Below, one piece after another: positions 9,952-39,571 of a stretch of DNA of 46,859 bases. Positions within the stretch are counted from its first letter, which is position 1; each line of letters begins with the position of its first letter. The stretch comes from Pseudomonadota bacterium (GTDB lineage Bacteria > Desulfobacterota > DSM-4660 > Desulfatiglandales > B25-G16). The stretch covers positions 1 to 46,859 of the forward strand of contig JAUVXZ010000002.1 of NCBI GenBank assembly GCA_030603345.1. Direction: 5' to 3'. The translations under genes were made by a program, and so were the position numbers. The notes under the pieces were generated by a model, which had not been told where the DNA came from, searched no databases, and saw nothing but the letters and a program-made list of their open reading frames with translations.

Positions 9952-9958
9952 TGGTGCA

Positions 9959-11187: not shown

Positions 11188-11222
11188 CCAGTCGATAGCG
11201 GTTTAGTTGCGGGAGGACTTTG

Positions 11223-23965: not shown

Positions 23966-24006
23966 GATCGGCGATTATCAAGGAATCCTAACGGGAGGCA
24001 GATGAG

Positions 24007-25383
24007 ATGGTTGAAGGAGAAGCGTGTGAGACCGATTTCATCGATACCCTTACAGAGCTGGCTACCTCTATTTCCTTAGAGCGTCTTCCTTCATCGGTGG
24101 TTCATGAAGGCCGGCGGGCACTTGTGGACACTGTTGGCGTGATCTTAGCAGGAGCGGCTGAGCCTGCAGCTCGCGCTCTTGCAAAACAGATGGCTATGGA
24201 ATCAGTGGGGCCAACCAGCACGATCATGGGTAGCGGCTATGGAGCTGAGGCCATGTGGGCGGCACTTACTAACGCTACTGCTGGCGTGTGGCACGAATTC
24301 GATCCAGGAAATCGTTTTGTAGGCGGCCACCCGGCTATCTATGTAGTCTCGGCCGGGCTGGCGGTGGCCGAACGGGAGGGCTCCCCGGGTAGACACCTCT
24401 TGGAGGCGGTTATTGCTGGATATGAGGTTGGGGCTCGGGTAGGTCTGGGCACTACCCTGAGGCCTGGAATGGATCCTCATGGCTCCTGGCCTACTGTAGG
24501 GGCAGCCACCACGGCAGGGCTGCTTATGGGCTATGTCCCCGTCAATCTGCGCGAGACGATCAATGTCTCAACTTCCCTGAACTTAGGCACCTCATGTAAA
24601 GCAGGTTACGAAGGTGCCACCATTCGCAATGTCTATGCCGGCTTCGGTGCTGCCATGGGCGTCTTGGCGGCTGATCTGGTAGGAAATGGTTTCACGGGAG
24701 AGCGAGATGGGATTAGCACGGTTTTCGGCAGCATTGCCGGAGAGTTCTTCGACATAGAAAAGGCCCTGGGGGATATTGGTCGGCGATGGGAAATCACACG
24801 GGGGTATCATAAGCTGCATGCTTGTGCACGCTGTATCCATCCTGCCCTCGATGCCCTGACTACCATCACAAAAGATCATGATGTTGCCCCAGAGGAGGTT
24901 GAAAGGATTGACGTATCGACCTTTTCCATGGCGGCCACTATGAACGACGTCTCCCCGGAGAATCCACTAGCTGCCAGATTTTCAATACCCCATGCTCTGG
25001 CGTCTTGCCTGGTCCTGCATGAGACTGGTATTGCCGCCTATGGTGAGTCAGCCGTGCAAGATCCGAGGATCAGAGAATTGGCAGTAAAGGTCACGGTACG
25101 ATATGATCCGGAACTGGATGCACGTACGCCGGCGGAACGACCGGCCGTGGTTCGGGCGTACCTACGTGATGGCACATCAGTAGGAGGAACGGTTCGACTT
25201 CCCTTGGGTGAACCCGATACGGAACCCCTGAGCGACGATGCACTTGGCAAGAAGTTCCTGAAACTGGCCTCCAGCTCACTAGGCTCTAATACGGCTCAAA
25301 GTTTGCTCGACAAGTTATGGCAGATCGAGACCCTACCGAACATCCGCGGGTTCACGGCCCTCTGCAAGGGGAGCAAAGAGTGA
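24007..25383 (+). CDS. MmgE/PrpD family protein, paralogue 5 (same subtype as 3, 4 and 7)
   Basis: 458 aa. GGGAGG lies 8 nt upstream. Motifs: 'DPGNRFVGGHPAIYVV', 'DPHGSWPTVGAA', 'RFSIPHALA'. Confidence 0.85.
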   Translation: MVEGEACETDFIDTLTELATSISLERLPSSVVHEGRRALVDTVGVILAGAAEPAARALAKQMAMESVGPTSTIMGSGYGAEAMWAALTNATAGVWHEFDPGNRFVGGHPAIYVVSAGLAVAEREGSPGRHLLEAVIAGYEVGARVGLGTTLRPGMDPHGSWPTVGAATTAGLLMGYVPVNLRETINVSTSLNLGTSCKAGYEGATIRNVYAGFGAAMGVLAADLVGNGFTGERDGISTVFGSIAGEFFDIEKALGDIGRRWEITRGYHKLHACARCIHPALDALTTITKDHDVAPEEVERIDVSTFSMAATMNDVSPENPLAARFSIPHALASCLVLHETGIAAYGESAVQDPRIRELAVKVTVRYDPELDARTPAERPAVVRAYLRDGTSVGGTVRLPLGEPDTEPLSDDALGKKFLKLASSSLGSNTAQSLLDKLWQIETLPNIRGFTALCKGSKE

Positions 25384-25766: not shown

Positions 25767-26468
25767 TTACCCGAAGGCCTGTGGGCCAAGTTTTGATCTC
25801 AGCTCTTCCATCACCTCTTCGGAACTTCGTACTTTTCCGAACAGCCTCTGGAAAGTTACCAGGGTTGCCTCATGATACTCAGGCTGGGAGGCCCCGCACC
25901 CATCATCGACTAATACACACCGAAATCCCCTGTCCGCCGCCTCACGGGCCGTGGTTTCCACACACATGTTGGTCGAAACACCAGTGAAAAGCAGATATCT
26001 CAAGCCTCTCGCCCACAGGATGGAATCTAAATTCGTTGAGCTGAAGGCGCCTATGGCTGTCTTGTTGATAACCGTTTCTCTGGGTTTCGGTCTGATTTCT
26101 TCTAAGATACTGTTTTCCGGCGTTCCCACCCTATTGTTGCACGATTGAAGCAGCATCTTTACATGGGGCAATGCGTCACTGTAGTCAGGTGAGCGTGATC
26201 CCATGGTCAAATAAACGACCACCTGGTGGTGTTTCCGAAAGAATGAGAGCAATCGTTGGATGGTTGGAACAACAACACCTTCGATGCGATCGTATCGGTA
26301 TTTGGCCAGATTATCCTTTCCTTGTTCCCGGAGCAGTCTTCCTAAACCTGTTTTTCTGCTTGCCGTGGCATATTGCATATCCACTAAAATGAGAGCCGTA
26401 GAACTTGCTTCTAGTTCAAAATCGGTGGTGAATTCGGCAATATAATCATTTCTAACACTGGGGATCAT
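25767..26468 (-). CDS. Isochorismatase-family cysteine hydrolase (amidase/ureidoacrylate-amidohydrolase-like)
   Basis: 'ALILVDMQYA' carries the catalytic Asp region and 'TGVSTNMCVETTAREA' the catalytic Cys region. 233 aa, with AAGGGGG upstream. Confidence 0.8.
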   Translation of the reverse strand: MIPSVRNDYIAEFTTDFELEASSTALILVDMQYATASRKTGLGRLLREQGKDNLAKYRYDRIEGVVVPTIQRLLSFFRKHHQVVVYLTMGSRSPDYSDALPHVKMLLQSCNNRVGTPENSILEEIRPKPRETVINKTAIGAFSSTNLDSILWARGLRYLLFTGVSTNMCVETTAREAADRGFRCVLVDDGCGASQPEYHEATLVTFQRLFGKVRSSEEVMEELRSKLGPQAFG

Positions 26469-26570
26469 CTTCTAACCCCCTTCATTTTATTGAGATATTA
26501 CCTCGAACCCTCTTACCTCTGAGTGAATAAATCCATGGCCGCAGAATCGTCGCATAACCAAAAACAAAGG

Positions 26571-27404
26571 CTATTCTGCGCGATTCTTTGCCTTTTTATA
26601 AATGCAAGCTCGATGAAATTTGCATTTTTCATGTGGGGCGGCGCATTCGGGAAGCGACTCAGGAACCCCGCTTACCCCCGTATCTTTGACAGAGGAGATG
26701 ATTTGAAATACCTTCTCAACATCTTCACTCTCTCCTTCAACGACCATCGTTGTGGCTCCCTCGGCTCCAAAGATGCCGCCTTTTCCGATGACGGTGCACG
26801 TTACATCTCCGAGGAGAGGAATGGCATCTTTTTCGCTGATAATTCTTCCCACAACAGGGGTTAAACCCACAGCCATACCCATAGAGACATCAATGCTCTT
26901 CCTCCCCGATTGCTGAATAATATCTATAAGTGATCCGGGGACCAATTTTTCCAAACCGGCAGCAACAATAATATCGCTTATCTCTGCCATAAGCCCTGAA
27001 ATAATTTTGCCAGGTTCAGCTCCCATAGGAGCTCCATACATAAGGGCTGCATTTCCAAATGCGTCAATTGCGTTTGCACCTATTATGGCAACGTCCTCAG
27101 CTTCGAGCTTTTCGATGGTTTGTTCTAATAACTCGTCTACAGAGAGCAATTTCCCCCTCTCAATCAAGGCACAATGGAACTCGCGACTAGAGAGTTGAGA
27201 CGTCTTGGTCCCTTGGGGAGTGACTCTACCCGAAATGCGTAGCGGCTTTCCCGCAAGTTCTTCGCTAACAGCGGAGACTGTTGTTCCTCCTTTGAGAAAG
27301 ATTTTCCCCGATTTCAATGCCCTTTGAACAGAGGGAAGCCTTGCAATTCCTTTGGCAATGATCCTCTTCGATTCATTGACGGTTAGGGTTACTTGGATCC
27401 TCAA
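26571..27404 (-). CDS. Conserved-looking hypothetical protein (277 aa), function unknown, Cys-containing C-terminal tail
   Basis: TTG start 5 nt after AGGAGG. The composition is globular and Gly/Ala-rich ('IGANAIDAFGNAALMYGAPMG', 'VIGKGGIFGAEGATTMVVEG'). The tail is 'ECAAPHEKCKFHRACIYKK'. I recognise no family by eye. Confidence 0.5.
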   Translation of the reverse strand: MRIQVTLTVNESKRIIAKGIARLPSVQRALKSGKIFLKGGTTVSAVSEELAGKPLRISGRVTPQGTKTSQLSSREFHCALIERGKLLSVDELLEQTIEKLEAEDVAIIGANAIDAFGNAALMYGAPMGAEPGKIISGLMAEISDIIVAAGLEKLVPGSLIDIIQQSGRKSIDVSMGMAVGLTPVVGRIISEKDAIPLLGDVTCTVIGKGGIFGAEGATTMVVEGESEDVEKVFQIISSVKDTGVSGVPESLPECAAPHEKCKFHRACIYKKAKNRAE

Positions 27405-27583
27405 TTTCTCCTCCTAGGTTAATGCCTACTCTGTTCATTTTTTATGAAACCCATAACCTGAATGCCCCGAGCGCCCTGCGGCAGGGTAGCTGAGCATTTA
27501 GAAAAGAGATATAGTCTTATACCGACTCTCCCCTATTATTTGTCAAAACTTCAGTGATTCGGCGTCCTTTGACTTTAGAAATT

Positions 27584-28564
27584 CTAGCCCTGGGACTTGT
27601 TCTGGAAGGTTGCTGTAGAACTATAAAGCAAGGCATAACTTAGATGTCTCCCTTTAAGAAAAGCTCTAATAATATCAAGAGACAGAATAGCCCAGTTGCG
27701 TAAATACTTAAGATATAGATGGATGAAAAGAAGCATATCCGTTATGAGGGCAAATACCATATGAATTAACATGATTAAAGCGAGAAATGATGCATTGATG
27801 TATCCGTAATCTAATCCGAGCCACTGGATAACCCCGGTTATACCAAGGACTGGCAACATGACGCAGACAACGTAGAGATACCATGCCTTTTGGCCTGGAT
27901 TAAACTGTACTCTGGGAGGCATCGGGTATTTCTTACTGTTTCCTATATGCTGTACTAACGCTTTCAGCCAATCCCAATCCGTTCTCTCCCATTGAGAAAC
28001 CTTGCGTAAGAAACGAAACAGATGTCTTTTGTCCAATACGAAATACAGAACAGGCATAAAAAGGAGGAGGAAAACGCCCAGTATTCGATGTGCCCAGCGT
28101 ATGATGCTGATCTCTTGAGCTGGAAGAAAATTAGAATAGTGCATTAGCGTTATCCCACTTATGGCCAGGGAGATTATGATACCGGCTGTAAGGAGGTGGA
28201 CAATCATCTCACCCCGCCTGAAGGCTGATGCATACTCCTTTATCGGTTTGCTCACCTGGGGGCATGCCACTACGCATTTGTAGCACCGCCTGCACTCTTG
28301 GCCAACCATGTTCTCTAGAGCCATGGATGTGCGCTGATTTTGCACAAATACAAAGCGGTATTCTTCCTTAACTACAGGACATGTATCGACACAATTCCCG
28401 CACGCTATACATCCCATATCGCCAATAATATCATCGGGAACAAAAAGCCTAGCATTCACGCTTATTCCCTCAGAAAACAGACGCATCCGTGCTACAGGAC
28501 ATTCTGTTTCATCTAACAATAAATCCATTATTTTTGTATTCAATTTCATTGGGAATAGTGGCAC
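27584..28564 (-). CDS. Fusion protein: N-terminal 2x[4Fe-4S] ferredoxin domain plus C-terminal multi-TM cytochrome b-like domain (FdnI/TcuB-like membrane electron-transfer module)
   Basis: 'CIACGNCVDTCP' and 'CRRCYKCVVACP' are followed by about 4-5 TM helices with conserved-looking His ('RWAHRILGVFLLLF', 'MLIHMVFALITD'). GTG start 6 nt after GGAGG. Confidence 0.65.
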   Translation of the reverse strand: MPLFPMKLNTKIMDLLLDETECPVARMRLFSEGISVNARLFVPDDIIGDMGCIACGNCVDTCPVVKEEYRFVFVQNQRTSMALENMVGQECRRCYKCVVACPQVSKPIKEYASAFRRGEMIVHLLTAGIIISLAISGITLMHYSNFLPAQEISIIRWAHRILGVFLLLFMPVLYFVLDKRHLFRFLRKVSQWERTDWDWLKALVQHIGNSKKYPMPPRVQFNPGQKAWYLYVVCVMLPVLGITGVIQWLGLDYGYINASFLALIMLIHMVFALITDMLLFIHLYLKYLRNWAILSLDIIRAFLKGRHLSYALLYSSTATFQNKSQG

Positions 28565-28578
28565 GCTCTTCCTCCATT

Positions 28579-29973
28579 CTACATAGTAGCTCGGTTTAAG
28601 CCTGGTGTGATAAGAAGGGCCATATAATCAGAAACACTTTTCAAAGACTCAAAGCGCCACGTCGCTTGAATGATTTCGTCCATGTGCTGTTTAGTCATGC
28701 GCTCCTCAGCATTGGCGTGAAATTTGGCGACGATCTCATCGTCTGTCAAGGGATCTTCAGGATCTCCCTTGGCCACATCAGTTTGGGCAGTGTATTGTTG
28801 ACCGCTTGCCGTGGTGATAGTCACTCGGGCGCGTTTTATGTTCGGGAACAGTGCATCGATTTCAGGATTAGCCACAACCTTAATCTTCTTCGTCAGACCC
28901 CTAAGCTCTGGATCACGCAGTCTTTGGTCGCTAAACGAGGTTGGTAAAATTTTACCATCCAAGACAGCAGCTGCTATCACATAGGGAAGACTGTGGTCAG
29001 CTGTCTCCTTAGTATCTGGCGCGTATTTTCCGGGGTCAGCGAGGATGTCAGCAGTACGAGTAGTTGTTTCGACCACGATATCGCTTACGTCATCAGCCAC
29101 AATACCATATTCAGTGCAAACCTTTAACGTAGCAGTAATCGGCTCGTGGGTGAGTTTCATGGTGGGGAAAGGTTTGTGGCTGCATCGAGTAATCAAGAAC
29201 TCCTTGCCAAGCCCGCGCAGCAGTTCATTGGTGTTCCACCGGACATGGTTCAGCACCTCTATCAGACCTTCTTTACCCTCGATTACCTCCACGGGTCCGG
29301 TGTATCCTTCTCGGGCCATCAGGGCTGCGCAGACACCTGCCTGGGCTGCCATTGGGTCTGCCGTGTTTTTCATATTCGTCAGATGACCGGCTACGACACC
29401 ACCCAGCGTGAAATGGCTGCACCCGCTAATGCCGACCGCGGCAACTAACTGGTCAATGTCCAGGTCGTACAATCTTCCTGCAACCAGAGGACTGACAAAT
29501 TGCGTCAAGGAGGCATGGTGCCAACCAACCTCGCGGATACCTGGTTCAGCAGCATGGCACCAGCGCATCTCTAACTCATAGCCAAGTATAATGGCCAGCA
29601 GTGCATCACGTCCCGTCTTTCCATTCGCCTCTGCTACTGCCAAGGCGGTACCGATGAGGTCAGACGGATGACTCGGGTCTTGTTGCCAGTAGCTATCGTT
29701 ATAATCGAGTGCCCGAATAAGGAGGCCATTCATCAGGGCTGCGTTGAGGGCATTGGTGCGTATGTCTCTTCCAATCACTGTCGCCTCTGGGATGCCACCC
29801 AGCTTCTCGATAAACCGATACACGGCTTGCATGTCTTCATTCCCTACTGCTGCCAATGCACAACCCACGCTATCAAGCAGGGAACGCTTGGCTGTATGCA
29901 CGGCTTCGTGCGGGATATCTTCGAATTGCAAAGCATGCACAAATTCGGCCATTTTTCGACTTATGGATATCAC
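28579..29973 (-). CDS. MmgE/PrpD family protein, paralogue 6 (2-methylcitrate-dehydratase-like subtype, pairs with paralogue 1)
   Basis: 464 aa with a GTG start after AGGAAGGG. Motifs: 'FEDIPHEAVHTAKRSLLDSVGCALAA', 'ALDYNDSYW', 'KETADHSLPY'. Confidence 0.85.
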   Translation of the reverse strand: MISISRKMAEFVHALQFEDIPHEAVHTAKRSLLDSVGCALAAVGNEDMQAVYRFIEKLGGIPEATVIGRDIRTNALNAALMNGLLIRALDYNDSYWQQDPSHPSDLIGTALAVAEANGKTGRDALLAIILGYELEMRWCHAAEPGIREVGWHHASLTQFVSPLVAGRLYDLDIDQLVAAVGISGCSHFTLGGVVAGHLTNMKNTADPMAAQAGVCAALMAREGYTGPVEVIEGKEGLIEVLNHVRWNTNELLRGLGKEFLITRCSHKPFPTMKLTHEPITATLKVCTEYGIVADDVSDIVVETTTRTADILADPGKYAPDTKETADHSLPYVIAAAVLDGKILPTSFSDQRLRDPELRGLTKKIKVVANPEIDALFPNIKRARVTITTASGQQYTAQTDVAKGDPEDPLTDDEIVAKFHANAEERMTKQHMDEIIQATWRFESLKSVSDYMALLITPGLNRATM

Positions 29974-30021
29974 GGCATACCCTTCCTTATCAAATATTGC
30001 AAGACTGTCTGCGTCCTATCT

Positions 30022-31140
30022 TTACAGCCTTTCAGCTACTGCCTTTGCCATGTCAATGGTGGAATTGGTTCCACCCATATCGTAGGTCCTTACCTTGGCC
30101 TCGGCGATCACCCCCGCGATGGCTCCTTCAAGTTTCTGAGCTTTGTCCCTCTCCCCCAGCCAGTCGAGCATCAGCTTGATGGTGAGCAACATAGCAGTTG
30201 GGTTGACCTTGTGCTGCCCCGCATATTTGGGGGCAGAGCCGTGGGTTGGTTCAAATATAGCGAAGTTGTCTCCAATGTTGCCGCTTGAGGCAAATCCTAA
30301 TCCTCCGACCAGCTGAGCTGCAAGATCCGAGAGAATATCGCCGAACATATTACTCGTCACTAACACACCATAATTGTTAGGATTTTTAAGCAACCACATC
30401 ATCTGTGCATCGATGTTGGTTTCCCACAGCTCAATCTCGCTGTAGTCTGAAGCCACTGTGCGTGCCTCTCGGATCATGAGGCCGCTCGTCTCGCGCAAAA
30501 TATTTGGTTTTTCAACCACTGTGACTGTTGGATAGCCAAACCTCCTGGCGTACTCAAATGCCTGACGCATTATACGACGGGCACCGTTCTGGGTAATTAC
30601 CCTGAGGCTAACTGCAATTTCGTCGGCAGGTATGTCTTTGAAGCGACCCATGGAGGGGCTATACTGCATAAGCTTTTCACGCACTTCATCTGGCAATGGG
30701 TAGAATTCTACGCCGCTGTATAATCCCTCGGTATTCTCCCGGAAGATAACCAAATCAATGTCGTCTCGATAGTTGAGTGGGTTGCCCTGGTAAGCTTTGC
30801 ACGGACGCAGGTTCGTGTACAGGTCGAACATCTGCCGGAGGGTCACAATTGGGCTACGGTACGTTAATCCTCTATTGTGTAACTGTGGGGCTAACTCCTT
30901 ATTTGCGTCGTTTTTGGGTTTTGAGGTGATAGCACCAAAAAGCGCGCAGCTACATGTTTTCAAAATATCGATTGTCCGCTCGGGTAAAGGATTACCCTCA
31001 GTGCACCAAAACCTCCACCCGATATCGGCTGGAATATATTCATCATCCAGATCCAGCGTTTCAAGCACCATTCGAGCGGCCTCCATCACGTCTTCACCAA
31101 TTCCGTCGCCAGGCATTAAGACAATCCGGTACTTACTCAT
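30022..31140 (-). CDS. Isocitrate/isopropylmalate/homoisocitrate/tartrate dehydrogenase family (beta-decarboxylating dehydrogenase)
   Basis: 'MSKYRIVLMPGDGIGEDV' at the N-terminus and the family signature 'NMFGDILSDLAAQLVGGLG'. 372 aa, with AGGAGG 9 nt upstream. Confidence 0.85.
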   Translation of the reverse strand: MSKYRIVLMPGDGIGEDVMEAARMVLETLDLDDEYIPADIGWRFWCTEGNPLPERTIDILKTCSCALFGAITSKPKNDANKELAPQLHNRGLTYRSPIVTLRQMFDLYTNLRPCKAYQGNPLNYRDDIDLVIFRENTEGLYSGVEFYPLPDEVREKLMQYSPSMGRFKDIPADEIAVSLRVITQNGARRIMRQAFEYARRFGYPTVTVVEKPNILRETSGLMIREARTVASDYSEIELWETNIDAQMMWLLKNPNNYGVLVTSNMFGDILSDLAAQLVGGLGFASSGNIGDNFAIFEPTHGSAPKYAGQHKVNPTAMLLTIKLMLDWLGERDKAQKLEGAIAGVIAEAKVRTYDMGGTNSTIDMAKAVAERL

Positions 31141-31228
31141 TCACATGCACCTCCTTGTGGCCCTTTCTGCTTGATGGCATAAAACTGGAGTGTAGAGATT
31201 TAAAACCTCTCCGTATTTTGCAATGTAT

Positions 31229-31726
31229 TTACCTTGCTGCCAATTTTTTTCGCGTATAGGCGATGAGCCCCCCTGCCTCAAAAATACCCATCACCGTTTC
31301 TGGCAAGGGCGGAAACCGAAAAGTGCCAGCTCCACACCGAATTTCTCCGGCTGCCAGATCCAGCTCAACCATCTCCTTATCCTGGATCACATCTACCGCC
31401 TCCGGACAAGTGAGCACGGGCAATGCAGTGTTCAGGCAGTTCCGATAATGAATGCGGGCAAAGGATTTCGCAATAATTGCACCCAAGCCATTCTCTTTGA
31501 GGCAGGTAGCTGCCTGCTCACGGGAAGATCCACAGCCCCAGTTCTTCCCGGCTACTATGATGTCGTTCGGTTTCACCTCTTTGACAAAGCGTGGGTCCAG
31601 ATCTTCGAGCGCATGTTTTGCCATTTCTGCAGGATCGTTGATGGTGTAGGTATATTTGCCAGCAAAAATCACGTCGGTGTTGACATCATCACCGTATTTC
31701 CAGACACGACCCCGAATAACGCTCAT
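31229..31726 (-). CDS. Aconitase-superfamily dehydratase small subunit (LeuD/HacB-like, short archaeal-type)
   Basis: 165 aa. Motifs '[11 protein letters not shown]' and '[13 protein letters not shown]'. The start overlaps the large-subunit stop (ATGA). Confidence 0.85.
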
Positions 31727-32991
31727 CCTCTGCCCTCCTGGAGATACCGTGGATGTATAATGGCTCCTGCAACTGCCGAGGCCGCTACTACCTCTGGGCT
31801 AGCCAGGTAGACCTCACTCTCTCTGGTTCCCATCCGGCCTTGAAAATTACGGTTAGCGCTGCTAATAATTACCTCACCTACCGCCGGAATACCCATATGA
31901 TTTCCCATGCATGGCCCGCAGCCGGGGCTTTGAACCATCGCACCGGCTGCCACAAAGGTCTCGATGTAGCCTGCCCTCAACGCGTCAAGGTACACCTCTG
32001 AGGATGCGGGGATCACGATCATGCGCGTCCCAGGGGCAATGCGTCTACCTTTAAGGACTGCGGCTGCGGCTCCTAAGTCCTCAAGACGTCCATTAGTACA
32101 CGTGCCAAGAAAGGCCTGGTCGATATGTAATCCCGCTATTTCTGAAAGGGGCTTCACATTGTCGACGGTATGGGGACAGGCAATCACTGGCACTATGGTG
32201 GACGCATCGTATTCGACAATCTTTGTATAGGACGCATCAGGGTCTGGATATACAGGTTCGTACTGACGATTGGACCGGTCTTTGAGGAAAGAGAAGACCT
32301 TCTGGTCGGGCGGTATGTAACTGTTTTTTGCACCCATCTCAGCAGTAATATTGGGCAATACTGCCTGCTGACTTAGGTCTAAGGCCTCGATGGCCTCTCC
32401 ATGCCACTCGACCGACATATACAGCCCGCCATCAGAACCCAGCTCACCAATGATATGAAGCGCCAAATCTTTTGCCGTGACGCTAGGCGAGAGTTTTCCA
32501 TGGACTATGATCTTTAGACTCTCGGGTACGCGCAGCCAGAGTTCACCAAGTGCCCAAATGGAGGCCATCTCGCTCCGGCCAATACCAGCGCCAAACGCAC
32601 CCATAACTCCTGCATGGGTTGTGTGGGAATCAGAACCCAATACTACCTCTCCAGGCAGAGCCAAACCCTCCTCAACAAGTACCTGGTGGCACACTCCCCG
32701 GCCTACATCGAAGAAGTGCTCAACTCCCTGCTCTTGCACAAACTCACGGACGATACGATGGTTTTCAGCATGCTCAGTCGTGGGAGCGGGTGTGGCGTGG
32801 TCAAGGATGATGGCATGCACCTTTGGATTAAAGACCTTTACGCCGCCCATCTTTTCAAAAATACCTCGGATTGCTGCTGTGTTATCATGCGAGAGCGCTA
32901 TGTCAGGGCTTATCTCAACGATCTGGCCGGGGACCGTTTTTGCTAACCCAGCTTTCTCTGCCAGGATTTTTTCGGCAAATGTTTGGCCCAT
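31723..32991 (-). CDS. Aconitase-superfamily dehydratase large subunit (LeuC/HacA-like)
   Basis: '[10 protein letters not shown]' plus the FeS Cys ligand regions 'CTNGRLEDL' and 'PGCGPCMGN'. I prefer the ATG at 32991, 4 nt after GGGGAG, over the track TTG at 33015. Confidence 0.85.
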
Positions 32992-33071
32992 TAAACTCCC
33001 CTCTTTTGTACACAATTGTGGCTTTTCAACTGGTTACCTAGAGGTTTAAGCGTACTGACTTAGCAGCGAGG

Positions 33072-33608
33072 TTACTGGTACCTGGTCAAATCAAAATCGG
33101 TAAAATCAGCGTGGTGAAAGATGATTGCCTCTGGCCTGCGTTTGAACCTGTCACCTTCCCACGAATGCGTCGCAACTACGTGCATCACCGCCTCGGGAAT
33201 TCCATGCTTGAAGCAAAGGGCGACCCCTGTGAAGGGGTGGCGCAAGTACTGGTACATACTGGCCCACTTGTATTTGTTGCCTTCCTTGCGGAACTCCATC
33301 AGCTTACCCACATCGGCCAGCAATGCACCTGCTATTAGTGTGTCTTTGTCGATTCGGTACCGGTCTCCATATGACTCTTTGAGGACATGCTCCATTACGA
33401 TGCACAGGCGGCAAACCGTTTTTACATGTTGAGCAAAGGTAATATCAACCTTCTCGATAAGTAGGGTATACGGCATTTGGCCCAAATCATCCACTGTCCA
33501 ACCACCAATCTCCATTGCCTCTTGCCATACCGCAAGTACCCGCTGGCGCAGGTCTTCGTCCTGGATGGCATTGAATTCAGGAATTAGTTTTGTTAGTTGA
33601 GCCGTCAT
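33072..33608 (-). CDS. HD-domain superfamily protein with a variant motif ('LLADVGK')
   Basis: 178 aa. 'FAQHVKTV...' followed by 'GALLADVGK' occupies the place where canonical HD proteins have 'LLHDIGK'. Later His residues occur in 'VVATHSWEGD' and 'IFHHADF'. Confidence 0.6.
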   Translation of the reverse strand: MTAQLTKLIPEFNAIQDEDLRQRVLAVWQEAMEIGGWTVDDLGQMPYTLLIEKVDITFAQHVKTVCRLCIVMEHVLKESYGDRYRIDKDTLIAGALLADVGKLMEFRKEGNKYKWASMYQYLRHPFTGVALCFKHGIPEAVMHVVATHSWEGDRFKRRPEAIIFHHADFTDFDLTRYQ

Positions 33609-33649
33609 TTCCTATCTCCGTAGCCGCTTGGATTAGAGCAAACAATGCC

Positions 33650-34513
33650 CTATCCACTGAGTGACACAGTGGCCTTTCTGGGTTCAAAGCAACAACAGGG
33701 CCTCACACTCACAATACGAACGCCACTTGCCCTCAAAGGACCAACCTTGATAAACGTTCCAAGAGCCGTGGTATTCCCTCCTAATCCAAGAGGCCCGACT
33801 CCTGTTGAATTGATCATTTCTGTTACCTTTTTCTCCCAATCGTTCTGGCGATTTAAGCTACCCTCTTTCATTGCCTCTAACATAAGCGCCGAGGCCTCCA
33901 GGTGGGTTCTCCCGATTGCCATGGCTGGAACACACGGAGTACAACCGAGATTTTTCACTTCAGATGTGACCCAGCTTGCTGCCTCATCCAGGACAACATC
34001 TATACTCCGTCTGTGAAATACACGGTATGTCTTAGCCCTGATCTCTGGTCCACCCCCTAGCAGCAAAACCGTTATCTTGAGCTTATTTTTTGCAGCCGGC
34101 TTTACGATCACGGGTGCTAGCAATACTTTACCAGGATCTCTGAATAAACCCTTTGACTGCTCAATCCTTTCAATTGGATTGCCCTTAACAGCCATAGGCC
34201 TTCCAGGCATGGCCCGTAAGCCCTGGATCACGCCGTCGCTGAGCGCTGTCACCCAATCATTGGGAAGGGTCACCTCATCACCGATTTCCACAAAGACGTG
34301 GGGTATTCCGGTATCATCGCACAGGGGAAGGGCATTCTTCTCGGCTATGTAGGCATTTTCTAAGATTCTTTCAAGTGCCCACTTTGCGTTTGGATTATTC
34401 TCTATCCGAATGGCATTTCGATAGGCCTGCAGTTGATCTCCTCGAAAGGTCGTACCCGCCTTTACCACACAATGCTTCACTGCCTCTACTATGTCCCCAC
34501 GGCTTACAGTCAT
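33650..34513 (-). CDS. Fe-S hydro-lyase, class I fumarase / L(+)-tartrate dehydratase alpha-type subunit
   Basis: 'LCDDTGIPHVFVEIG' corresponds to the 'CQDTG' cluster-ligand region of class I fumarate/tartrate hydratases. 287 aa. Confidence 0.8.
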   Translation of the reverse strand: MTVSRGDIVEAVKHCVVKAGTTFRGDQLQAYRNAIRIENNPNAKWALERILENAYIAEKNALPLCDDTGIPHVFVEIGDEVTLPNDWVTALSDGVIQGLRAMPGRPMAVKGNPIERIEQSKGLFRDPGKVLLAPVIVKPAAKNKLKITVLLLGGGPEIRAKTYRVFHRRSIDVVLDEAASWVTSEVKNLGCTPCVPAMAIGRTHLEASALMLEAMKEGSLNRQNDWEKKVTEMINSTGVGPLGLGGNTTALGTFIKVGPLRASGVRIVSVRPCCCFEPRKATVSLSG

Positions 34514-34538
34514 CGATTACGCTGCCACCTCCATAACC

Positions 34539-35069
34539 CTAGAAGATGCTCTCTCCCTGTGCTATAGCAATAATCGCAGGGAGCCCTTTGACTTCCAGTT
34601 CATAGAGGGCCTCCATTCCCTCTTCCTTAAATGCCACGATCCGCTGATAAAGGATTCTATCTGAGAACAGAGCGCTGACAGGGGGTGTGATGGCAAAAAG
34701 GGAATTATAATTCTCCAGCTCGAAAACGGTTCTTGCGCTTAAGGAACCCTTTCCCACATGGATCTTTACACCCGCCTTTGCAAGGGCAGGAATACTTCGT
34801 TCGATTTCAACCTTGTTGCTCGTCGTGGGGCCAATGCCAGCAAGGCTTACCGCTGTATGGAAGATGACTGCTCCCTTCAGGTTTATGGCTATGGTGCCCA
34901 AGGTATCATTCTCGATTAGCCTCACCAGTTTGGGCAGAATAGCGTCCCTTCCGCAGTAGATAATCCCATGGATCTCAATTCTGTCACCTATCTCCAGCCT
35001 TTCGGTTTCGTTCTCACCGATTGGTGTCTGAACCTTAATCGTTCCCTTTTCTTTTCCAGATTTTTTCAT
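34539..35069 (-). CDS. Fe-S hydro-lyase, class I fumarase / tartrate dehydratase beta-type subunit
   Basis: 176 aa. 'IHGIIYCGRDAILPKL' and 'KIHVGKGSLS' resemble the TtdB/FumB C-terminal domain. It lies directly upstream of the alpha-type subunit. Confidence 0.8.
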   Translation of the reverse strand: MKKSGKEKGTIKVQTPIGENETERLEIGDRIEIHGIIYCGRDAILPKLVRLIENDTLGTIAINLKGAVIFHTAVSLAGIGPTTSNKVEIERSIPALAKAGVKIHVGKGSLSARTVFELENYNSLFAITPPVSALFSDRILYQRIVAFKEEGMEALYELEVKGLPAIIAIAQGESIF

Positions 35070-35073
35070 CCTG

Positions 35074-35787
35074 CTATGCTGTCATCTCCGCAACCGCTGC
35101 ACCTCTGGTGGCTTGCAGTTCTCTATATCTCGTTTCAAGCTCTGGCTTGTCGGAGGCCTTTAGTTTCTCTATTTCATCCTTAAACTTATCCTCTGCTATC
35201 TCAGTCAACCTCTGCTTCAAGTGAGGAGCTGGTGGGATCACGTGTTTTCCGTACATCCTCCTTATGAGTAAGGCGATATTGAAGGGAGATAGTTCAGCGG
35301 GACAACGCGCTGCACACATCCCACACATTATGCATTCCATAGAAAGCTCAACTACTTTTGCAAAATCCCCACGGATCGCCGCAGACACATAACTCATTAC
35401 TTCTAGGTCCATTGGGCACGACTTGGTGCAGGCATTACACCCCATACATTTCAGGAGCTCGGGATAGAGCCTGATAATGTTAGAATCAGTTAGGGGTGTA
35501 TTTTTGATTGTATAGAGCGCTTTATTTGCGGATGTGTAAGGAAGTTGAACCAAGTCCATATCTGGCTCTACCACGGTCTGACAGGCCAGACCGACGTTGA
35601 TCTTGTAGTCACCCTTCTTCCTATAGACTGTCACGCAGGCGCCGCAGACACCACCCCGGCAGCCACATCCCCTTTTCAGCATATAGCCGGAAAATTCCAA
35701 TGCCTTCTGAATGGTCAGCCCCCGCGGTACCTCGTATTTCCTTCCCATCACGTAGATAGGTATCATTTTAATGATATCGTTTAGCAT
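35074..35787 (-). CDS. Succinate dehydrogenase / fumarate reductase iron-sulfur subunit-like protein
   Basis: A 2Fe-2S-like 'CGCRGGVCGACV' is followed by two ferredoxin motifs, 'CMGCNACTKSCP' and 'CIMCGMCAARCP'. The gene starts 3 nt after the flavoprotein gene. Confidence 0.8.
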   Translation of the reverse strand: MLNDIIKMIPIYVMGRKYEVPRGLTIQKALEFSGYMLKRGCGCRGGVCGACVTVYRKKGDYKINVGLACQTVVEPDMDLVQLPYTSANKALYTIKNTPLTDSNIIRLYPELLKCMGCNACTKSCPMDLEVMSYVSAAIRGDFAKVVELSMECIMCGMCAARCPAELSPFNIALLIRRMYGKHVIPPAPHLKQRLTEIAEDKFKDEIEKLKASDKPELETRYRELQATRGAAVAEMTA

Positions 35788-35789
35788 CC

Positions 35790-37433
35790 TTAGGCTCTAA
35801 AAGGCTCTTTAGTATACTGTACCATCATCAGGGCCTTTTCAAAACGGTAATCGGGAAGGAGCATCGGCGAAACTGTGTCGGTAGTAGTCTGTTCTTCCAG
35901 CAACAGTTCATTATATGCCTTTAGATGCTCAAGGGACAACTTCCTGATCTTGGTTTTATTGATCCTCTGTGCTGCATACTCTCCAGTTCTACGTCCAAAG
36001 ACAAAAATATCTACCAAGGAGTTTGATCCCAACCGGTTGTGACCATGGACACCGCCTTGTACCTCACCAATTGCATAAAGATTGGGAACATCGGTCTCGC
36101 AGTGCACATCAGTTTGGATTCCTCCATTTTGATAGTGCTGCGTTGGATAGACTAAAATAGGATCTTTGATGGGGTCGATATCATATTTCTGAAACCGTTT
36201 GTGAATCCCTGCGAACCTTCTTAAGAACGTTCCATCCCGGCCTATTACGTCTATGAGTGGAGTGTCGAGCCACACCCCAACCATTCCGGTAGGGGTCAAA
36301 ACCCCTTTACCCCTTTCCCCGCATTCCCGGATAATCGCGGCAGACAAGGCATCTCTCGTTTCCAGCCGGTCGACAAACATCTCACCGTCGACGTTCACCA
36401 CTTGGGCTCCTTGAGCCCTAAGCGCCTCAGAAACGAGGAGGCCCAGCATCTGCTCAGGCCAGGCAACGCCTGTGGGATGATATTGAATATAGTCAATGTA
36501 CAGCAGTTTGGACCCTGCCCTATAGGCCATTATCAATCCATCTGCGGTTGCCCCGTAATGATTGGACGTTGGAAATCCCTGTGGATGTAAACGCCCTATG
36601 CCTCCTGTGGCAATAATGGTGGTTTTGGCTTCAACAACGATATACTGATCCGTGTCAAAGTTTAGCAGCACGGACCCTGCGCATTTTCCCTGATCATCTA
36701 AGACGAGTTCAACAGCAGGGCTAAATTCCAAGACATTGATTTCCTGGTTGCGAATTTCATCGCAAAGAACCCTCATGATCTCCAAGCCGGTAAGGTCCTT
36801 TACTGAATGAGATCTTCTCCGGGAATGTCCAGCAGGCATGTGGGTGAAGTAGGTGCCATCAGGAAGCCGATCAAAATTAACACCCAGATTCGTGAGCCAC
36901 TCCACAATGAAGGGAGCATCCTGCACTAACGCTTCAACCAATTCGGGAATGTTTTTGAACCTTCCGCCTACCACGGTATCGATGTAATGGATGGCAGGTG
37001 AATCCTCAGGTAATGTTGCTGCACCGATGCCACCCTCAGCCATGATCGTGTTTGAGTCACCCAGTCTCAATTTTGTCGCTATTAATACTTCTGCTCCGTG
37101 TTCTTTCGCGGTCAAGGCGGCAGTTAGCCCCGCCCCACCGGAACCAACAACCAATATGTCCGTCTTATAGTCTACCTTTGTTAGGTCAATGATATCGGGA
37201 TTAAGTCGGCCGGGAGATTCCAATAAATCCACCAATTCTTTAGGAGCTGAATCTCCCTTGTTTGACCCCACCCGAATCTGCCTTTTTTCGGCTGGACGGA
37301 AATCAGGATGGTAGGTCTCCAATAATGTGGTCTTTTCAGCAAAATCTAGTCTCGGGAAAGTCTGCTCCCTGCGGAGACGCCGTGAGGCCTCTACTTTTTT
37401 GAGAGAGCCTTGCATTTCAGGTGGATAAGCCAT
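35790..37433 (-). CDS. Succinate dehydrogenase / fumarate reductase / L-aspartate oxidase-type FAD flavoprotein, with a ~90-aa N-terminal extension
   Basis: 'ILVVGSGGAGLTAALTAKEHG' and 'GVHGHNRLGSNSL' match the family 'GANRLGGNSL'. 547 aa. No strong SD precedes the ATG at 37433, so the exact start is uncertain. Confidence 0.8.
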   Translation of the reverse strand: MAYPPEMQGSLKKVEASRRLRREQTFPRLDFAEKTTLLETYHPDFRPAEKRQIRVGSNKGDSAPKELVDLLESPGRLNPDIIDLTKVDYKTDILVVGSGGAGLTAALTAKEHGAEVLIATKLRLGDSNTIMAEGGIGAATLPEDSPAIHYIDTVVGGRFKNIPELVEALVQDAPFIVEWLTNLGVNFDRLPDGTYFTHMPAGHSRRRSHSVKDLTGLEIMRVLCDEIRNQEINVLEFSPAVELVLDDQGKCAGSVLLNFDTDQYIVVEAKTTIIATGGIGRLHPQGFPTSNHYGATADGLIMAYRAGSKLLYIDYIQYHPTGVAWPEQMLGLLVSEALRAQGAQVVNVDGEMFVDRLETRDALSAAIIRECGERGKGVLTPTGMVGVWLDTPLIDVIGRDGTFLRRFAGIHKRFQKYDIDPIKDPILVYPTQHYQNGGIQTDVHCETDVPNLYAIGEVQGGVHGHNRLGSNSLVDIFVFGRRTGEYAAQRINKTKIRKLSLEHLKAYNELLLEEQTTTDTVSPMLLPDYRFEKALMMVQYTKEPFRA

Positions 37434-37482
37434 ATTGCCATCATCGTTTGCAAAGTCAAATTTGCCAAAGTCTTTATATAGA

Positions 37483-37511
37483 TATATATATAACTAAACA
37501 AGCTAAATCAA
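37483..37511 (-). promoter_or_regulatory. Candidate sigma70-type promoter for the long minus-strand operon
   Basis: On the minus strand: TTGATT (37511-37506), a 17-nt spacer, then TATATA (37488-37483). It lies about 50 nt upstream of the flavoprotein ATG. The -10 element is within a (TA)n run, so its register is ambiguous. Confidence 0.3.
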
Positions 37512-37678
37512 GAAGAAAGTTAATAGACATATTCCACCCATATCAAATCCATTCCCGGGAACATCAACAACTTTTCACTGATAATACATTTGCTGCATCT
37601 ATCAGTTTCCGACTTGTAATGACCTTCCCTTGAATACCACCCCAGTTGTATAAATTTATTGCATAGGAATTTCCTTTT

Positions 37679-37805
37679 GGACGCAGATGAACGCAGACCC
37701 GCTTGCCATCGCCACACTCAGGCATTAGCGGGCAGGTTATTAGGATTTTGAATATGAAAGACTAATAGAAAAAATATCTGCGTGTATCGGCGAAAATTTG
37801 CGTCC
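37679..37805. repeat. Nested inverted-repeat element (~127 bp): structured RNA or MITE-like remnant
   Basis: The outer pair is GGACGCAGAT (37679-37688) with ATTTGCGTCC (37796-37805), matching 9 of 10. The second tier is ACGCAGA (37691-37697) with TCTGCGT (37777-37783). The inner hairpin is CCCGCT (37698-37703) with AGCGGG (37727-37732). ACGCAGA occurs twice in direct repeat. Confidence 0.4.
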
Positions 37806-38138
37806 TAATTAAGCTAGTTTCTTTACCGGGTTGAGAAAAATAGTCTGGTCCGAGAGTTACCTATGTGGCGGGTATTCATTGATTCTGAAATCTGAACTAA
37901 TGCATCACGGTGAGGGGCAATACGAGCTCCAAAGCTTTCGTAAAGTGCTTGATTCCATTGGTCAGCCTGTCATAGATTCATTAGCATCTCCAACTATTTT
38001 GGACACTCAGGGGACAAAGAGGCAAGATTCTGGTAAGTGCGTATTCGATAGCATATATCCATGCCACAAGGTATTTACGATATTCAACGCATTGACGCTG
38101 AGCATTATATAGTTAAAAGAATAAGTACTGTATACATT

Positions 38139-39306: not shown

Positions 39307-39571
39307 TTGTGGTAGCGTCTTAAAGGAACACTCTGTCTGATTTGTTTTTTCATTTCAATATGTTAATTCATAACAAGAAGGAGCCCCTTGCCACTTTAAT
39401 ACATCTGGAAGCATTATTTTTTGCCCGTTTACCTTGTAGGTATGCTAGGAAATTTGAATTGTGGAATTTTAACCAAGAGGTTTTACTATGTCCAAGAATG
39501 GTACTACGTCAGAAGGAACGAGGCATTACTCCCAGCGACCAAAGCTAGAGTCAGGCGCCGGAGAAGCCCAT

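Follow-up and report, generated by a model that had tools for sequence, protein, structure and literature searches.

A lineage-specific fusion of metabolic modules in a Desulfobacterota genome as a candidate anaerobic route for substituted succinates

In Salmonella, TcuA is a tricarballylate dehydrogenase of the FAD_binding_2 family that is re-oxidised by the membrane Fe-S/haem protein TcuB, and its product enters a hydratase step. To our knowledge, tricarballylate is used only through TcuABC in enterobacteria. For C5-branched acids, the pairing of mesaconase with citramalate lyase is established. Methylsuccinate forms in anoxic habitats by itaconate reduction, its degradation has been described only as an aerobic process based on coenzyme A (CoA) esters, and itaconate-fermenting bacteria were not yet known in 2025 (PMC12290011). 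Here, we describe a 12-gene operon in a stretch of 46,859 nucleotides (nt) from a Desulfobacterota bacterium (GCA_030603345.1, contig JAUVXZ010000002.1), referred to below as the window. We put the chances at about even that this operon is an anaerobic catabolic route for 2-substituted succinates as free acids, built from separable modules. Its reaction logic is probably dehydrogenation, hydration and then either C-C cleavage or oxidative decarboxylation. What we observe is which genes are present, which residues are conserved and which genes occur together; from this we infer every reaction, direction and substrate named below. The operon and its regulator consist of the following features (lengths in amino acids, aa).

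38139-38903, minus strand: GntR/HutC-type regulator (PF00392, E 2e-21; PF07702, UTRA, E 2.4e-31)
37474-37493, no strand: 20-nt near-palindrome TTATATATATATCTATATAA, about 40 nt upstream of the flavoprotein start codon
35790-37433, minus strand: flavoprotein of the SdhA/FrdA/NadB superfamily, 547 aa (PF00890, FAD_binding_2, E 1.4e-72)
35074-35787, minus strand: Fe-S subunit, 237 aa (Fer2 and 4Fe-4S dicluster domains by Pfam)
34539-35069, minus strand: beta subunit of a hydro-lyase of the two-subunit class-I (Fe-S) fumarase/tartrate-dehydratase type, 176 aa (PF05683, Fumerase_C, E 4.6e-20)
33650-34513, minus strand: alpha subunit of this hydro-lyase, 287 aa (PF05681, Fumerase, E 1.5e-54)
33072-33608, minus strand: small HD-like protein, 178 aa (HDIG, 27.4 bits against a cut-off of 27.6; no Pfam match)
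31723-33015, minus strand: LeuC/HacA-type large subunit of an aconitase-family hydro-lyase, 430 aa (PF00330, E 2e-95)
31229-31726, minus strand: LeuD-type small subunit, 165 aa (Aconitase_C; passes TIGR02087)
30022-31140, minus strand: beta-decarboxylating dehydrogenase of the isopropylmalate dehydrogenase (IPMDH)/isocitrate dehydrogenase (ICDH) family with two insertions, 372 aa (PF00180, Iso_dh, E 1.7e-86)
28579-29973, minus strand: MmgE/PrpD protein, here PrpD6, 464 aa (MmgE_PrpD N and C domains by Pfam)
27584-28564, minus strand: 2x[4Fe-4S] ferredoxin fused to a four-helix FdnI-type cytochrome b, 326 aa (Ni_hydr_CYTB, E 2.9e-16, and Fer4)
26571-27404, minus strand: conserved protein without a family, 277 aa
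25767-26468, minus strand: isochorismatase-family hydrolase, 233 aa (PF00857, E 2.9e-33)

The 12 co-directional open reading frames (ORFs) in 25767-37433 had been listed in a first-pass annotation, and all of them are present. Their intergenic distances, in array order, are 2, 4, 25, 41, 56, -4, 88, 48, 14, 179 and 102 nt, in agreement with the 0-180 nt given there. The family names that it assigned are backed by strong Pfam matches in 10 of the 12 proteins (E 1e-20 to 1e-95) and in the GntR/HutC regulator. The hydro-lyase beta gene does precede the alpha gene, the window holds seven PrpD paralogues of which PrpD6 is the sixth, and the 277-aa protein described as unknown matches no Pfam or NCBIfam family. 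Two names were only partly borne out: 'SdhB-like' describes the architecture of the Fe-S subunit and not its sequence, and the 'HD-domain protein' narrowly misses the HDIG model, has no Pfam match and carries Ala-Asp in place of the HD dyad. These ORFs are not a chance arrangement, since independent assemblies contain the entire array with unchanged gene order and lengths. The gene layout suggests that all 12 genes may share a single transcript. A terminator scan found no convincing minus-strand terminator inside the array; promoter and terminator scans were discarded as evidence, since their counts were at or below shuffled expectation. The 179-nt gap before the 277-aa gene, together with the independent occurrence of the 277-aa/isochorismatase pair elsewhere (L015 and L016), allows for an internal promoter. 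An Rfam scan of the whole window found no riboswitch or RNA family.

Next, we focused on how widely the array is conserved. Exact copies of the 277-aa protein occur on at least 23 short metagenome contigs (exact copies of the window measure 30 kb or less), and the closest genomes are Desulfobacterota metagenome-assembled genomes (MAGs). The full 12-gene order is found at 78-87% protein identity on two independent metagenome contigs (L019 and L020). Both also carry the GntR gene, PrpD7, an octopine-dehydrogenase-like gene, a hydantoinase, a CN-hydrolase and a 13th, overlapping amidohydrolase gene. The array is not one indivisible pathway unit, as the complete set is a fusion seen only in the close relatives of the window, uncultured relatives of sulfate reducers. 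In many other anaerobe loci, the modules that this lineage has fused are found apart from one another. One such module is the invariant pair of flavoprotein and Fe-S subunit, often accompanied by the Fe-S-cytochrome b protein. Related loci number about 330 in genomes, with many more homologues in metagenomes.

A flavoprotein-anchored survey (53-80% identity) took in 60 loci, each extending 5 kb or more downstream, and these came from Desulfobacterota, Bacillota, Chloroflexota, NC10 and others. Among the carriers in culture are Geobacter argillaceus, Ca. Formimonas warabiya, Desulfofundulus thermobenzoicus, Desulfovirgula thermocuniculi, Desulfotruncus arcticus, Acetoanaerobium pronyense and Propionigenium maris. 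The flavoprotein gene has among its neighbours its Fe-S partner in 59 of the 60 loci, the fumarase-type hydratase in 33, the Fe-S-cytochrome b gene in 31, a CitE-type lyase in 17, the LeuCD-type hydratase in 15, a thiokinase, a GntR gene and a PrpD gene in 11 each, an Iso_dh gene in 10 and an aldehyde oxidoreductase (AOR) in eight. The two hydratase types differ in their company. Of the 31 loci with only the fumarase type, 24 carry a lyase or thiokinase and none carries Iso_dh, whereas of the 13 loci with only the LeuCD type, none carries a lyase or thiokinase and seven carry Iso_dh (Fisher p 1.5e-6 and 4.5e-5, values that are descriptive and not true probabilities because the 60 loci are phylogenetically related). 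This split matches the two exits, cleavage and oxidative decarboxylation, that the first-pass annotation had drawn. It is also what would be expected if one hydratase yields a tertiary and the other a secondary alcohol: a tertiary alcohol cannot be oxidised and must be cleaved, which would explain the exclusive pairing of the fumarase-type hydratase with CitE, CitDEF or thiokinase, whereas a 3-substituted malate is a secondary alcohol that an Iso_dh enzyme can oxidise.

The modules occur in several other combinations. Geobacter argillaceus carries a compact version with genes for the flavoprotein, Fe-S subunit, FumB, FumA, Fe-S-cytochrome b, a CitD/E fusion, CitF, GntR and an AEC-family transporter. 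Sister operons in Desulfotruncus arcticus and a Syntrophaceae MAG combine a TRAP or TctA transporter, PrpF, Iso_dh, the Fe-S subunit, the flavoprotein and a fused aconitase with a 2-oxoacid:ferredoxin oxidoreductase (OFOR) subunit and a Fer4/CCG pair. Paralogous flavoprotein loci, two per genome, are present in six genomes. Most window families recur in other orders in L021 and L024/L133, with the 277-aa and HD-like genes beside LeuCD, and two MAGs of Bacillota and Armatimonadota (L142 and L143) combine the 277-aa gene with genes for PrpD, amidohydrolase, thiokinase, flavoprotein, Fe-S subunit and hydratase. In a second survey of 80 metagenome loci anchored on Iso_dh (62-78% identity), the block HD-LeuC-LeuD-Iso_dh(-PrpD6) was present in about a third, often after a CcsA/B-like ligase, and the flavoprotein in none. 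In L027, this block is 71-76% identical to that of the window and follows a CcsA/B-like ligase and a 260-aa citrate-synthase-like (CCL-like) protein; an MFS transporter interrupts it, and a GntR/UTRA gene is divergently oriented.

From these patterns, we propose the following pathway. The cytoplasmic flavoprotein and its Fe-S partner would desaturate the succinate backbone in the manner of complex II, yielding a substituted fumarate or maleate, and electrons would pass to menaquinone through the Fe-S-cytochrome b fusion where its gene is present. The class-I-fumarase-like hydratase would then add water, as mesaconase does in forming citramalate, to give a 2-substituted malate, a tertiary alcohol, which a CcsA-like thiokinase and a CitE lyase encoded on the plus strand could activate and cleave to acetyl-CoA and a 2-oxoacid. 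Alternatively, the LeuCD-like enzyme would form a 3-substituted malate, from which the IPMDH-like dehydrogenase would produce a 2-oxoacid by oxidative decarboxylation. In the lineage of the window, both exits would be fused behind one dehydrogenase. PrpD6 may act on this C4-dicarboxylate backbone with enolate chemistry, as a dehydratase, decarboxylase or isomerase, and the isochorismatase-like amidase and neighbouring amidohydrolases may free the acid from an amide (or cyclic amide or imide) precursor. The HutC-type GntR protein would sense the acid and control a promoter that contains the 20-nt palindrome.

The flavoprotein keeps the dicarboxylate-site residues His/Arg/His/Arg (HPTG, EALR, HY and NRLGSNS, aligned to E. 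coli FrdA and NadB). The His that binds flavin adenine dinucleotide (FAD) covalently in complex II (R-S-H-T motif) is replaced by Asn (GDSNTIMAEGG). The same Asn is found in 120 of 120 close database homologues and in 79 locus copies of at least 50% identity; the search for some of the census loci used a peptide pattern that includes the Asn motif, and the 120 homologues, retrieved independently, have the same motif. In complex II, non-covalent FAD favours fumarate reduction over succinate oxidation, and relatives with non-covalent FAD (soluble fumarate reductases, NadB and FrdA His44 variants) reduce fumarate and oxidise succinate poorly. As the covalent-FAD His is absent, the oxidative direction of the flavoenzyme is not assured. 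The protein has a conserved N-terminal extension of about 90 aa (full-length coverage among homologues); no Succ_DH_flav_C domain was found by Pfam, nor a signal peptide, transmembrane (TM) or hydrophobic segment. Its NCBIfam scores, given here and below against curated equivalog cut-offs (subfamily and domain models represent a lower level), all fall short: 319 against 718 for TfrA and 301 against 453 for NadB (TIGR00551), its two best models, and 284 against 567 for sdhA_frdA_Gneg. An identity as NadB was ruled out by this score, by Pro at the NadB Glu121 position and by the absence of nadA and nadC from the window. Membership of TcuAB was also ruled out, with TcuA absent among the 25 matches listed for the 547-aa flavoprotein (69 families matched), a TcuA score of 158 against a cut-off of 369 for the second window flavoprotein (484 aa) and no NCBIfam match to TcuB for the cytochrome fusion.

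The Fe-S subunit has a 2Fe-2S-type motif (C43x4C48x2C51...C69) followed by C114xxCxxCxxxCP and C152xxCxxCxxxCP. As both latter motifs have the complete set of four Cys, the site that holds the 3Fe-4S cluster in SdhB is predicted to hold 4Fe-4S here. A profile of nine orthologues reached SdhB/FrdB chains at E 8e-4 to 9e-3, and none of the SdhB/FrdB NCBIfam models matched. Membership of SdhB was rejected on these grounds, the profile relation being marginal and the likeness one of architecture. The Fe-S-cytochrome b fusion contains two CxxCxxCxxxCP motifs and four TM segments, with His123, His159, His268 and His282 inside the TM helices, a pattern that matches FdnI and would accommodate two haems. 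It is the probable membrane and quinone anchor of the flavoprotein-FeS pair. The three proteins may form an unrecognised branch of complex II, an alkyl- or carboxyalkyl-succinate:menaquinone oxidoreductase that heads free-acid pathways, although we consider this somewhat doubtful. Its marks would be non-covalent FAD, a private N-terminal domain and a ferredoxin-fused anchor of the FdnI type, a combination that we put forward with the same reserve.

The first-pass annotation held that the core enzymes are not housekeeping forms, and indeed no SdhA/FrdA/NadB, fumarase/TtdAB, LeuC, LeuD, LeuB/Icd/homoisocitrate dehydrogenase or PrpD equivalog cut-off is reached. The hydro-lyase alpha subunit passes the subfamily model TIGR00722 (111.7 against 100.65) and fails the fumarase and tartrate-dehydratase equivalogs (PRK06246, 126 against 276; TtdA, 47 against 365), and the beta subunit is below the cut-off of all models (75 against 238, 50 against 264). 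The LeuC-like protein, whose start is placed eight codons later by gene callers, passes the subfamily models PRK00402 and hacA_fam and fails the LeuC equivalog (459 against 611); the LeuD-like protein fails the LeuD equivalog (160 against 246). The recognition loop of the latter, KYTYTIND, aligns with YLV-Y in MJ1277 (isopropylmalate/citramalate isomerase) and YLRT in MJ1271 (homoaconitase). With Tyr at the position of the homoaconitase Arg, it fits neither the isopropylmalate isomerase type (YLVY/M) nor the homoaconitase type. The dehydrogenase is below the cut-off of all 16 NCBIfam models (best AksF2, 344 against 540; LeuB, 190 against 353), and its motif YRSPIVTLR has Ser-Pro-Ile where aligned solved ICDHs have Ser-Ile-Asn or Ser-Val-Asn.

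The dyad of the HD-like protein is degenerate (Ala-Asp, LLADVGK) in the window, L019 and L027, and His-Asp (ILHDVGK) in the more distant L024. Its gene directly precedes that of the LeuC-like protein in L024 and in 13 of 41 loci anchored on IPMDH. Where it occurs, this position just 5' of the LeuC-like gene is almost invariable.

PrpD6 scores far below the PrpD equivalogs (101 against 575, 83 against 458). Its closest solved structures are IDS epimerase and then cis-aconitate decarboxylase (CAD), both closer than PrpD. It keeps the equivalents of D88, H99, H150, K198 and K266 (catalytic His, both Lys, Asp and second His), as defined for MmgE/PrpD proteins in PMC12290011. The second base of the epimerase (Tyr145/148) is Arg in PrpD6 and is Tyr in none of the window paralogues, an alignment that is uncertain at this position. 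One MmgE/PrpD protein is a proven methylsuccinate isomerase (epimerase), the family acts on C4-dicarboxylate backbones through an enolate, and the substrates of characterised PrpD-family enzymes are 2-methylcitrate and cis-aconitate (PMC12290011). As all PrpD enzymes use this enolate chemistry on a C4-dicarboxylate backbone, a PrpD beside such a dehydrogenase is chemically sensible.

The seven PrpD paralogues, which lie within 47 kb, share 24-40% pairwise identity and diverged anciently. PrpD3, 4, 5 and 7 form a subgroup with Arg at the Lys198 position of IDS epimerase. The run PrpD3-4-5 is kept together with the 484-aa flavoprotein, a hydantoinase and a CN-hydrolase in Desulfobacterales bin60 (L015). 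Besides PrpD6, MmgE/PrpD paralogues lie as follows.

7077-8486, 17850-19208, 20925-25383 and 39488-40942: further MmgE/PrpD paralogues

The activating and cleaving enzymes of the proposed pathway lie in a second operon with PrpD1, 26 kb from the array.

8602-10249, plus strand: beta subunit of an ADP-forming acid-CoA ligase (thiokinase) of CcsA/AclB-like architecture (ATP-grasp_2 and Citrate_bind)
10282-11187, plus strand: alpha subunit of this ligase (CoA_binding and Ligase_CoA)
11220-12182, plus strand: CitE/HpcH-type acyl-CoA C-C lyase (PF03328, E 3.4e-47)

The first-pass annotation had linked these genes to the array, and in other loci they do lie directly downstream of the flavoprotein, Fe-S and hydratase genes: the ligase alpha gene follows the hydratase genes directly in L007, L014, L021 and L107-L114, and the CitE-type lyase is syntenic with the flavoprotein operon in the 17 loci counted above. 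The closest solved structures of the thiokinase beta subunit are succinyl-CoA synthetase beta and then citryl-CoA synthetase (CCS, 6hxq). Its gene is split over two frames, with 8602-9951 corresponding to residues 1-416 of a 514-aa protein in L021 and an overlapping ORF at 9884-10249 aligning to the Cys-rich tail of that protein (residues 428-504); the split stems either from a frameshift or from an error in assembly. Such a Cys-rich, apparently ferredoxin-like tail is unusual on a CoA ligase. The lyase falls short of the NCBIfam models (citE, 210 against 443; RipC_Ccl, 151 against 375), and its closest solved structures are human CLYBL, a citramalyl-CoA lyase, and malyl-CoA lyases.

Which substituted succinate would enter this pathway? 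The first-pass annotation proposed a C5-branched acid, and that stands as one of two comparably plausible classes, the other being the tricarballylate/aconitate type. We tentatively favour a C5-branched substrate, at somewhat less than even chances. The preferred route through the fumarase/lyase branch would then run from methylsuccinate through mesaconate and citramalate to acetyl-CoA and pyruvate. The fumarase-type hydratase and citrate-lyase-type lyase mirror the pair of mesaconase and citramalate lyase. Class I fumarases are known to accept mesaconate (PMC4682846). The closeness of the CitE protein to CLYBL and malyl-CoA lyases also suggests a C5-branched acid, as does the lack in the LeuD loop and the dehydrogenase motif of the residues that would bind a gamma-carboxylate (homoaconitase Arg and ICDH Asn). 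By analogy, the methylsuccinate isomerase of the MmgE/PrpD family (PMC12290011) suggests the same. In the fumarase/lyase branch, we lean slightly towards an alkyl over a carboxymethyl substituent, two close classes, because the hydratase family seems to track substrate class.

Several observations weigh against the proposed route. About two-thirds of the Iso_dh-anchored loci (L047, L079 and about 30 others) have no window family beside the Iso_dh orthologue, which is 62-67% identical and found in other phyla; in L047 and L079, the two loci with annotated neighbours, these are the housekeeping genes greA, a peptidase and type IX secretion system (T9SS) genes. The IPMDH-like family therefore probably also has a general metabolic role in stand-alone loci. 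The HD-like and 277-aa proteins have no place in the scheme. The arguments on specificity from single residues come from pairwise alignments and from determinants described for characterised enzymes. The Asn in place of the covalent-FAD His, present in every homologue examined, is the main argument for a reductive role. Finally, the CCS-like architecture of the thiokinase and the gene content of several related loci point to tricarboxylates.

In this first alternative, which we hold to be possible and clearly less probable than the proposed route, the same reaction logic would act on tricarballylate (carboxymethylsuccinate) or a homologue, giving aconitate and then citrate or isocitrate. A thiokinase and lyase of the citryl-CoA type would release acetyl-CoA and oxaloacetate, or oxidative decarboxylation would yield 2-oxoglutarate. 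At the same modest odds, the operon would be an anaerobic analogue of TcuAB that feeds a private tricarboxylic acid (TCA) segment. The thiokinase beta subunit combines ATP-grasp_2 and Citrate_bind as in CcsA and AclB, with CCS as its second-best solved relative. In L027-L029, which hold the nearest orthologues of the HD-LeuCD-IPMDH-PrpD6 block, a CCS-like ligase accompanies the block, and in L027, the locus checked by Pfam, so does the short citrate-synthase-like protein. Besides TctA or TRAP transporters, related flavoprotein operons encode a fused aconitase, an OFOR subunit, an Iso_dh protein and PrpF, a member of the aconitate-isomerase family. A CitDEF-type lyase occurs in Geobacter-type operons, and 2-methylcitrate and cis-aconitate are the substrates of characterised PrpD-family and CAD enzymes. 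However, the flavoprotein clade of the window is paired with the fumarase-type and not the aconitase-type hydratase, the LeuD loop has Tyr where the carboxylate-binding homoaconitase has Arg, and the dehydrogenase has Ile at the isocitrate-binding Asn position. Neither window flavoprotein was assigned to TcuA and the cytochrome fusion has no TcuB-like match, as described above. As the TctA/PrpF loci have flavoproteins of 53-60% and dehydrogenases of 31-43% identity to those of the window, they may serve another substrate.

A second alternative, which we consider unlikely, reverses the flow. The flavoprotein, Fe-S subunit and cytochrome b would then form a cytoplasm-facing quinol:substituted-fumarate reductase, an electron sink as in malate/fumarate fermentation. 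A hydroxy acid (citramalate or citrate) would be partly cleaved by the lyase for carbon and electrons. The remainder would lose water to form mesaconate or aconitate, and reduction of these would yield methylsuccinate or tricarballylate. The invariable Asn fits such a reductase, a di-haem cytochrome b could oxidise menaquinol, and gut anaerobes reduce itaconate to methylsuccinate (PMC12290011). However, the flavoprotein has no export signal, unlike known respiratory flavin reductases, and the IPMDH-type oxidative decarboxylases and 2-oxoacid oxidoreductases of the sister operons fit a flow away from the saturated acid. TcuA, of the same superfamily, works as a dehydrogenase with non-covalent FAD. 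The neighbouring PrpD proteins, of a methylsuccinate-type epimerase family, also make more sense with the saturated acid as substrate. The composition of the operon thus argues for flow from the saturated acid onward.

Ordinary TCA and leucine/isoleucine enzymes (fumarate reductase, fumarase, aconitase or isopropylmalate isomerase, ICDH or IPMDH) clustered by happenstance would fit the IPMDH-like orthologues found alone among greA, peptidases and T9SS components, and Desulfobacter-type bacteria do run unusual TCA variants with ATP-citrate-lyase-type enzymes, but this is very improbable given that no array protein reaches a housekeeping equivalog cut-off, that partner genes differ from locus to locus, that six genomes have two paralogous flavoprotein loci, that the window lacks malate dehydrogenase, 2-oxoglutarate oxidoreductase and leuA, and that the surrounding island also encodes a HutC regulator, ABC transporter components, amidohydrolases and seven PrpD paralogues.

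The GntR gene lies 705 nt upstream of the flavoprotein gene on the same strand, and its orthologues (56-87% identity) flank the flavoprotein operon in the 11 loci counted above and in L019 and L020. The near-palindrome in the spacer, a candidate promoter/operator, is unique in the window, with 0.02 matches expected by chance. It lies within the only spacer block that is conserved with L019 and L020 (the final 45 nt or so ahead of the start codon), the rest having diverged. A similar element is present in L007; the palindrome is not conserved in L014, where the GntR gene abuts the operon. The conserved adjacency and the unique palindrome in the sole conserved block link regulator and operon, and the GntR protein may thus control the operon. 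An operator shared across the island was ruled out, as the palindrome is unique and only one 8-nt half-site was found (after the GntR stop codon). A sigma-54-like TGGCA...TTGCA just 5' of the start codon was rejected because its spacing is 3 nt too long, and a search for repeats in the spacers found short pairs at chance level. The spacer (37500-38138) accounts for most of a distance of 705 nt between the genes that is about 320 nt longer than in L019 and L020 (386 nt), and the extra sequence has no Rfam match.

The 277-aa protein has 609 homologues (55-86% conserved), with invariant Cys254, Cys261, His264 and Cys267 near the C-terminus, and no match in plasmids. Its AlphaFold2 model (pLDDT 83.8) most resembles RpiA/eIF2B/CoA-transferase-like folds by Foldseek, a marginal similarity (E at least 1e-3, TM-score about 0.3). 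Its gene occurs with other array families in L021, L024, L142 and L143. It is conceivable, if rather unlikely, that the 277-aa and degenerate HD proteins are new accessory components. The isochorismatase-family hydrolase is, judged by its sequence, probably an amidase; its best NCBIfam models, biuret amidohydrolase and RutB, are both below cut-off. In L015 and L016, the 277-aa/isochorismatase pair stands alone between PrpD paralogues. In the strain variants L003 (3956-4138) and L005 (3004-3186), the isochorismatase gene is reduced to a 60-aa remnant directly before PrpD5, with an identical 277-aa gene. As the gene is mostly deleted there, some populations seem able to do without the amidase.

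The window as a whole is a catabolic island. Besides the genes discussed above (the PrpD paralogues, the two-subunit thiokinase, the CitE lyase and a second FAD_binding_2 protein), it encodes Liv-type ABC transporter components, a tungsten-type AOR, a molybdopterin oxidoreductase set, an octopine-dehydrogenase-like protein, a hydantoinase and a CN-hydrolase. The AOR (AFOR_N/AFOR_C) lies at 4802-6817; AOR genes near the flavoprotein operon were recorded at L007, L010, L014, L111, L118-L120, L127 and L138. The proposed pathway predicts no aldehyde intermediate. Between the CitE and short-chain dehydrogenase/reductase (SDR) genes and PrpD2, 13260-17752 encodes a QmoC/NarI-like membrane protein, a PhsA/QrcB-like molybdopterin oxidoreductase, with no obvious Tat signal within the matched region, and a 4Fe-4S protein. 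At 41243-46796 lie the octopine-dehydrogenase-like gene, a D-hydantoinase-like amidohydrolase (344 bits against a cut-off of 393), the CN-hydrolase and Liv-type permease genes, which are kept beside the operon in L019, L020 and L015, with a DUF169 gene added to the set in L019 and L020. These conserved neighbours hint at an N-heterocyclic or amide precursor.

The operon and its related loci thus present a concrete candidate for the anaerobic methylsuccinate or tricarballylate route that has been missing, and for a new kind of complex-II relative. If this is true, anaerobes in Desulfobacterota, Bacillota, Chloroflexota and NC10 would mineralise methylsuccinate, tricarballylate and related substituted succinates, and some of these acids may be freed from cyclic imide or amide precursors by the co-located amidohydrolases. 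TCA-like chemistry would be re-used as interchangeable modules, in which one hydratase type goes with a lyase and the other with a decarboxylating dehydrogenase. As several cultured strains (e.g., Geobacter argillaceus) carry compact versions, the idea is directly testable. The first-pass annotation did not recognise the operon as described. Our literature search on the gene combination, free-acid methylsuccinate dehydrogenases, mesaconate and aconitate reductases and catabolic CCS/CCL likewise found no description of such an operon. In the literature searched, this complex-II relative, its modular operons, a free-acid anaerobic methylsuccinate or tricarballylate route and the 277-aa family are undescribed.

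The closest known systems each share part of this design. Like type B complex II, which has one di-haem cytochrome b, the operon pairs a flavoprotein of this superfamily, complete with the dicarboxylate-site His/Arg/His/Arg, with a cytochrome b partner of the di-haem type, and its Fe-S subunit likewise combines a 2Fe-2S motif at the N-terminus with a dicluster at the C-terminus. Unlike complex II, its flavoprotein lacks the covalent-FAD His and Succ_DH_flav_C and has the N-terminal extension, its Fe-S subunit shows a second complete 4Fe-4S motif where complex II has the 3Fe-4S motif, and the place of SdhC/FrdC as anchor is taken by an FdnI-type cytochrome b that carries a fused ferredoxin domain; the SdhA, FrdA and SdhB models all fail on these proteins. 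With TcuA/TcuB, the proposed system would share an FAD_binding_2 dehydrogenase that acts on a substituted succinate and a membrane Fe-S/haem partner. It differs in its separate Fe-S subunit and dedicated hydratase and lyase genes, in an Fe-S-cytochrome b protein that is not a homologue of TcuB and in a flavoprotein that does not reach TcuA at cut-off. The lower methylaspartate pathway offers the same succession of a two-subunit hydratase of the class-I-fumarase type and a lyase of the citrate-lyase family (CitE here, CitDEF in Geobacter). In the operon, however, the unsaturated acid would come from a complex-II-like dehydrogenase, glutamate mutase and methylaspartase being absent, and the window lyase would work with a thiokinase instead of an acyl-carrier subunit.

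The itaconate/methylsuccinate cluster of pseudomonads (Ict, Ich, Ccl, Mcd, Msi; PMC12290011) also combines an MmgE/PrpD protein with a CitE-type lyase in one locus, and its end products, acetyl-CoA and pyruvate, would be the same. That cluster belongs to aerobes and proceeds through CoA esters; it depends on a CoA transferase, an enoyl-CoA hydratase and an acyl-CoA dehydrogenase (PMC12290011), families that are all missing from the operon, where oxidation and hydration would act on free acids. PrpD6 further lacks the epimerase Tyr, and the window CitE falls well short of RipC_Ccl. LeuCD-LeuB (MJ1277-type) and the homoaconitase and homoisocitrate dehydrogenase of methanogens likewise place an Iso_dh enzyme after a two-subunit hydro-lyase of the aconitase family, and their subfamily-level models match the operon proteins. 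The equivalogs fail, though, the KYTYTIND loop fits neither type, and the context is catabolic, without leuA, cimA or aksA. Finally, CcsAB-Ccl of Hydrogenobacter is similar in its two-subunit ADP-forming ligase with Citrate_bind followed by a C-C lyase, and in the short citrate-synthase-like protein of L027. It differs from the window, whose lyase is of the CitE type, whose ligase beta family has a Cys-rich C-terminal tail and whose context is catabolic instead of autotrophic. Each array protein with a family thus belongs to a known superfamily, and the logic of the operon copies the chemistry of the TCA cycle, the leucine pathway, TcuAB and the lower methylaspartate pathway.

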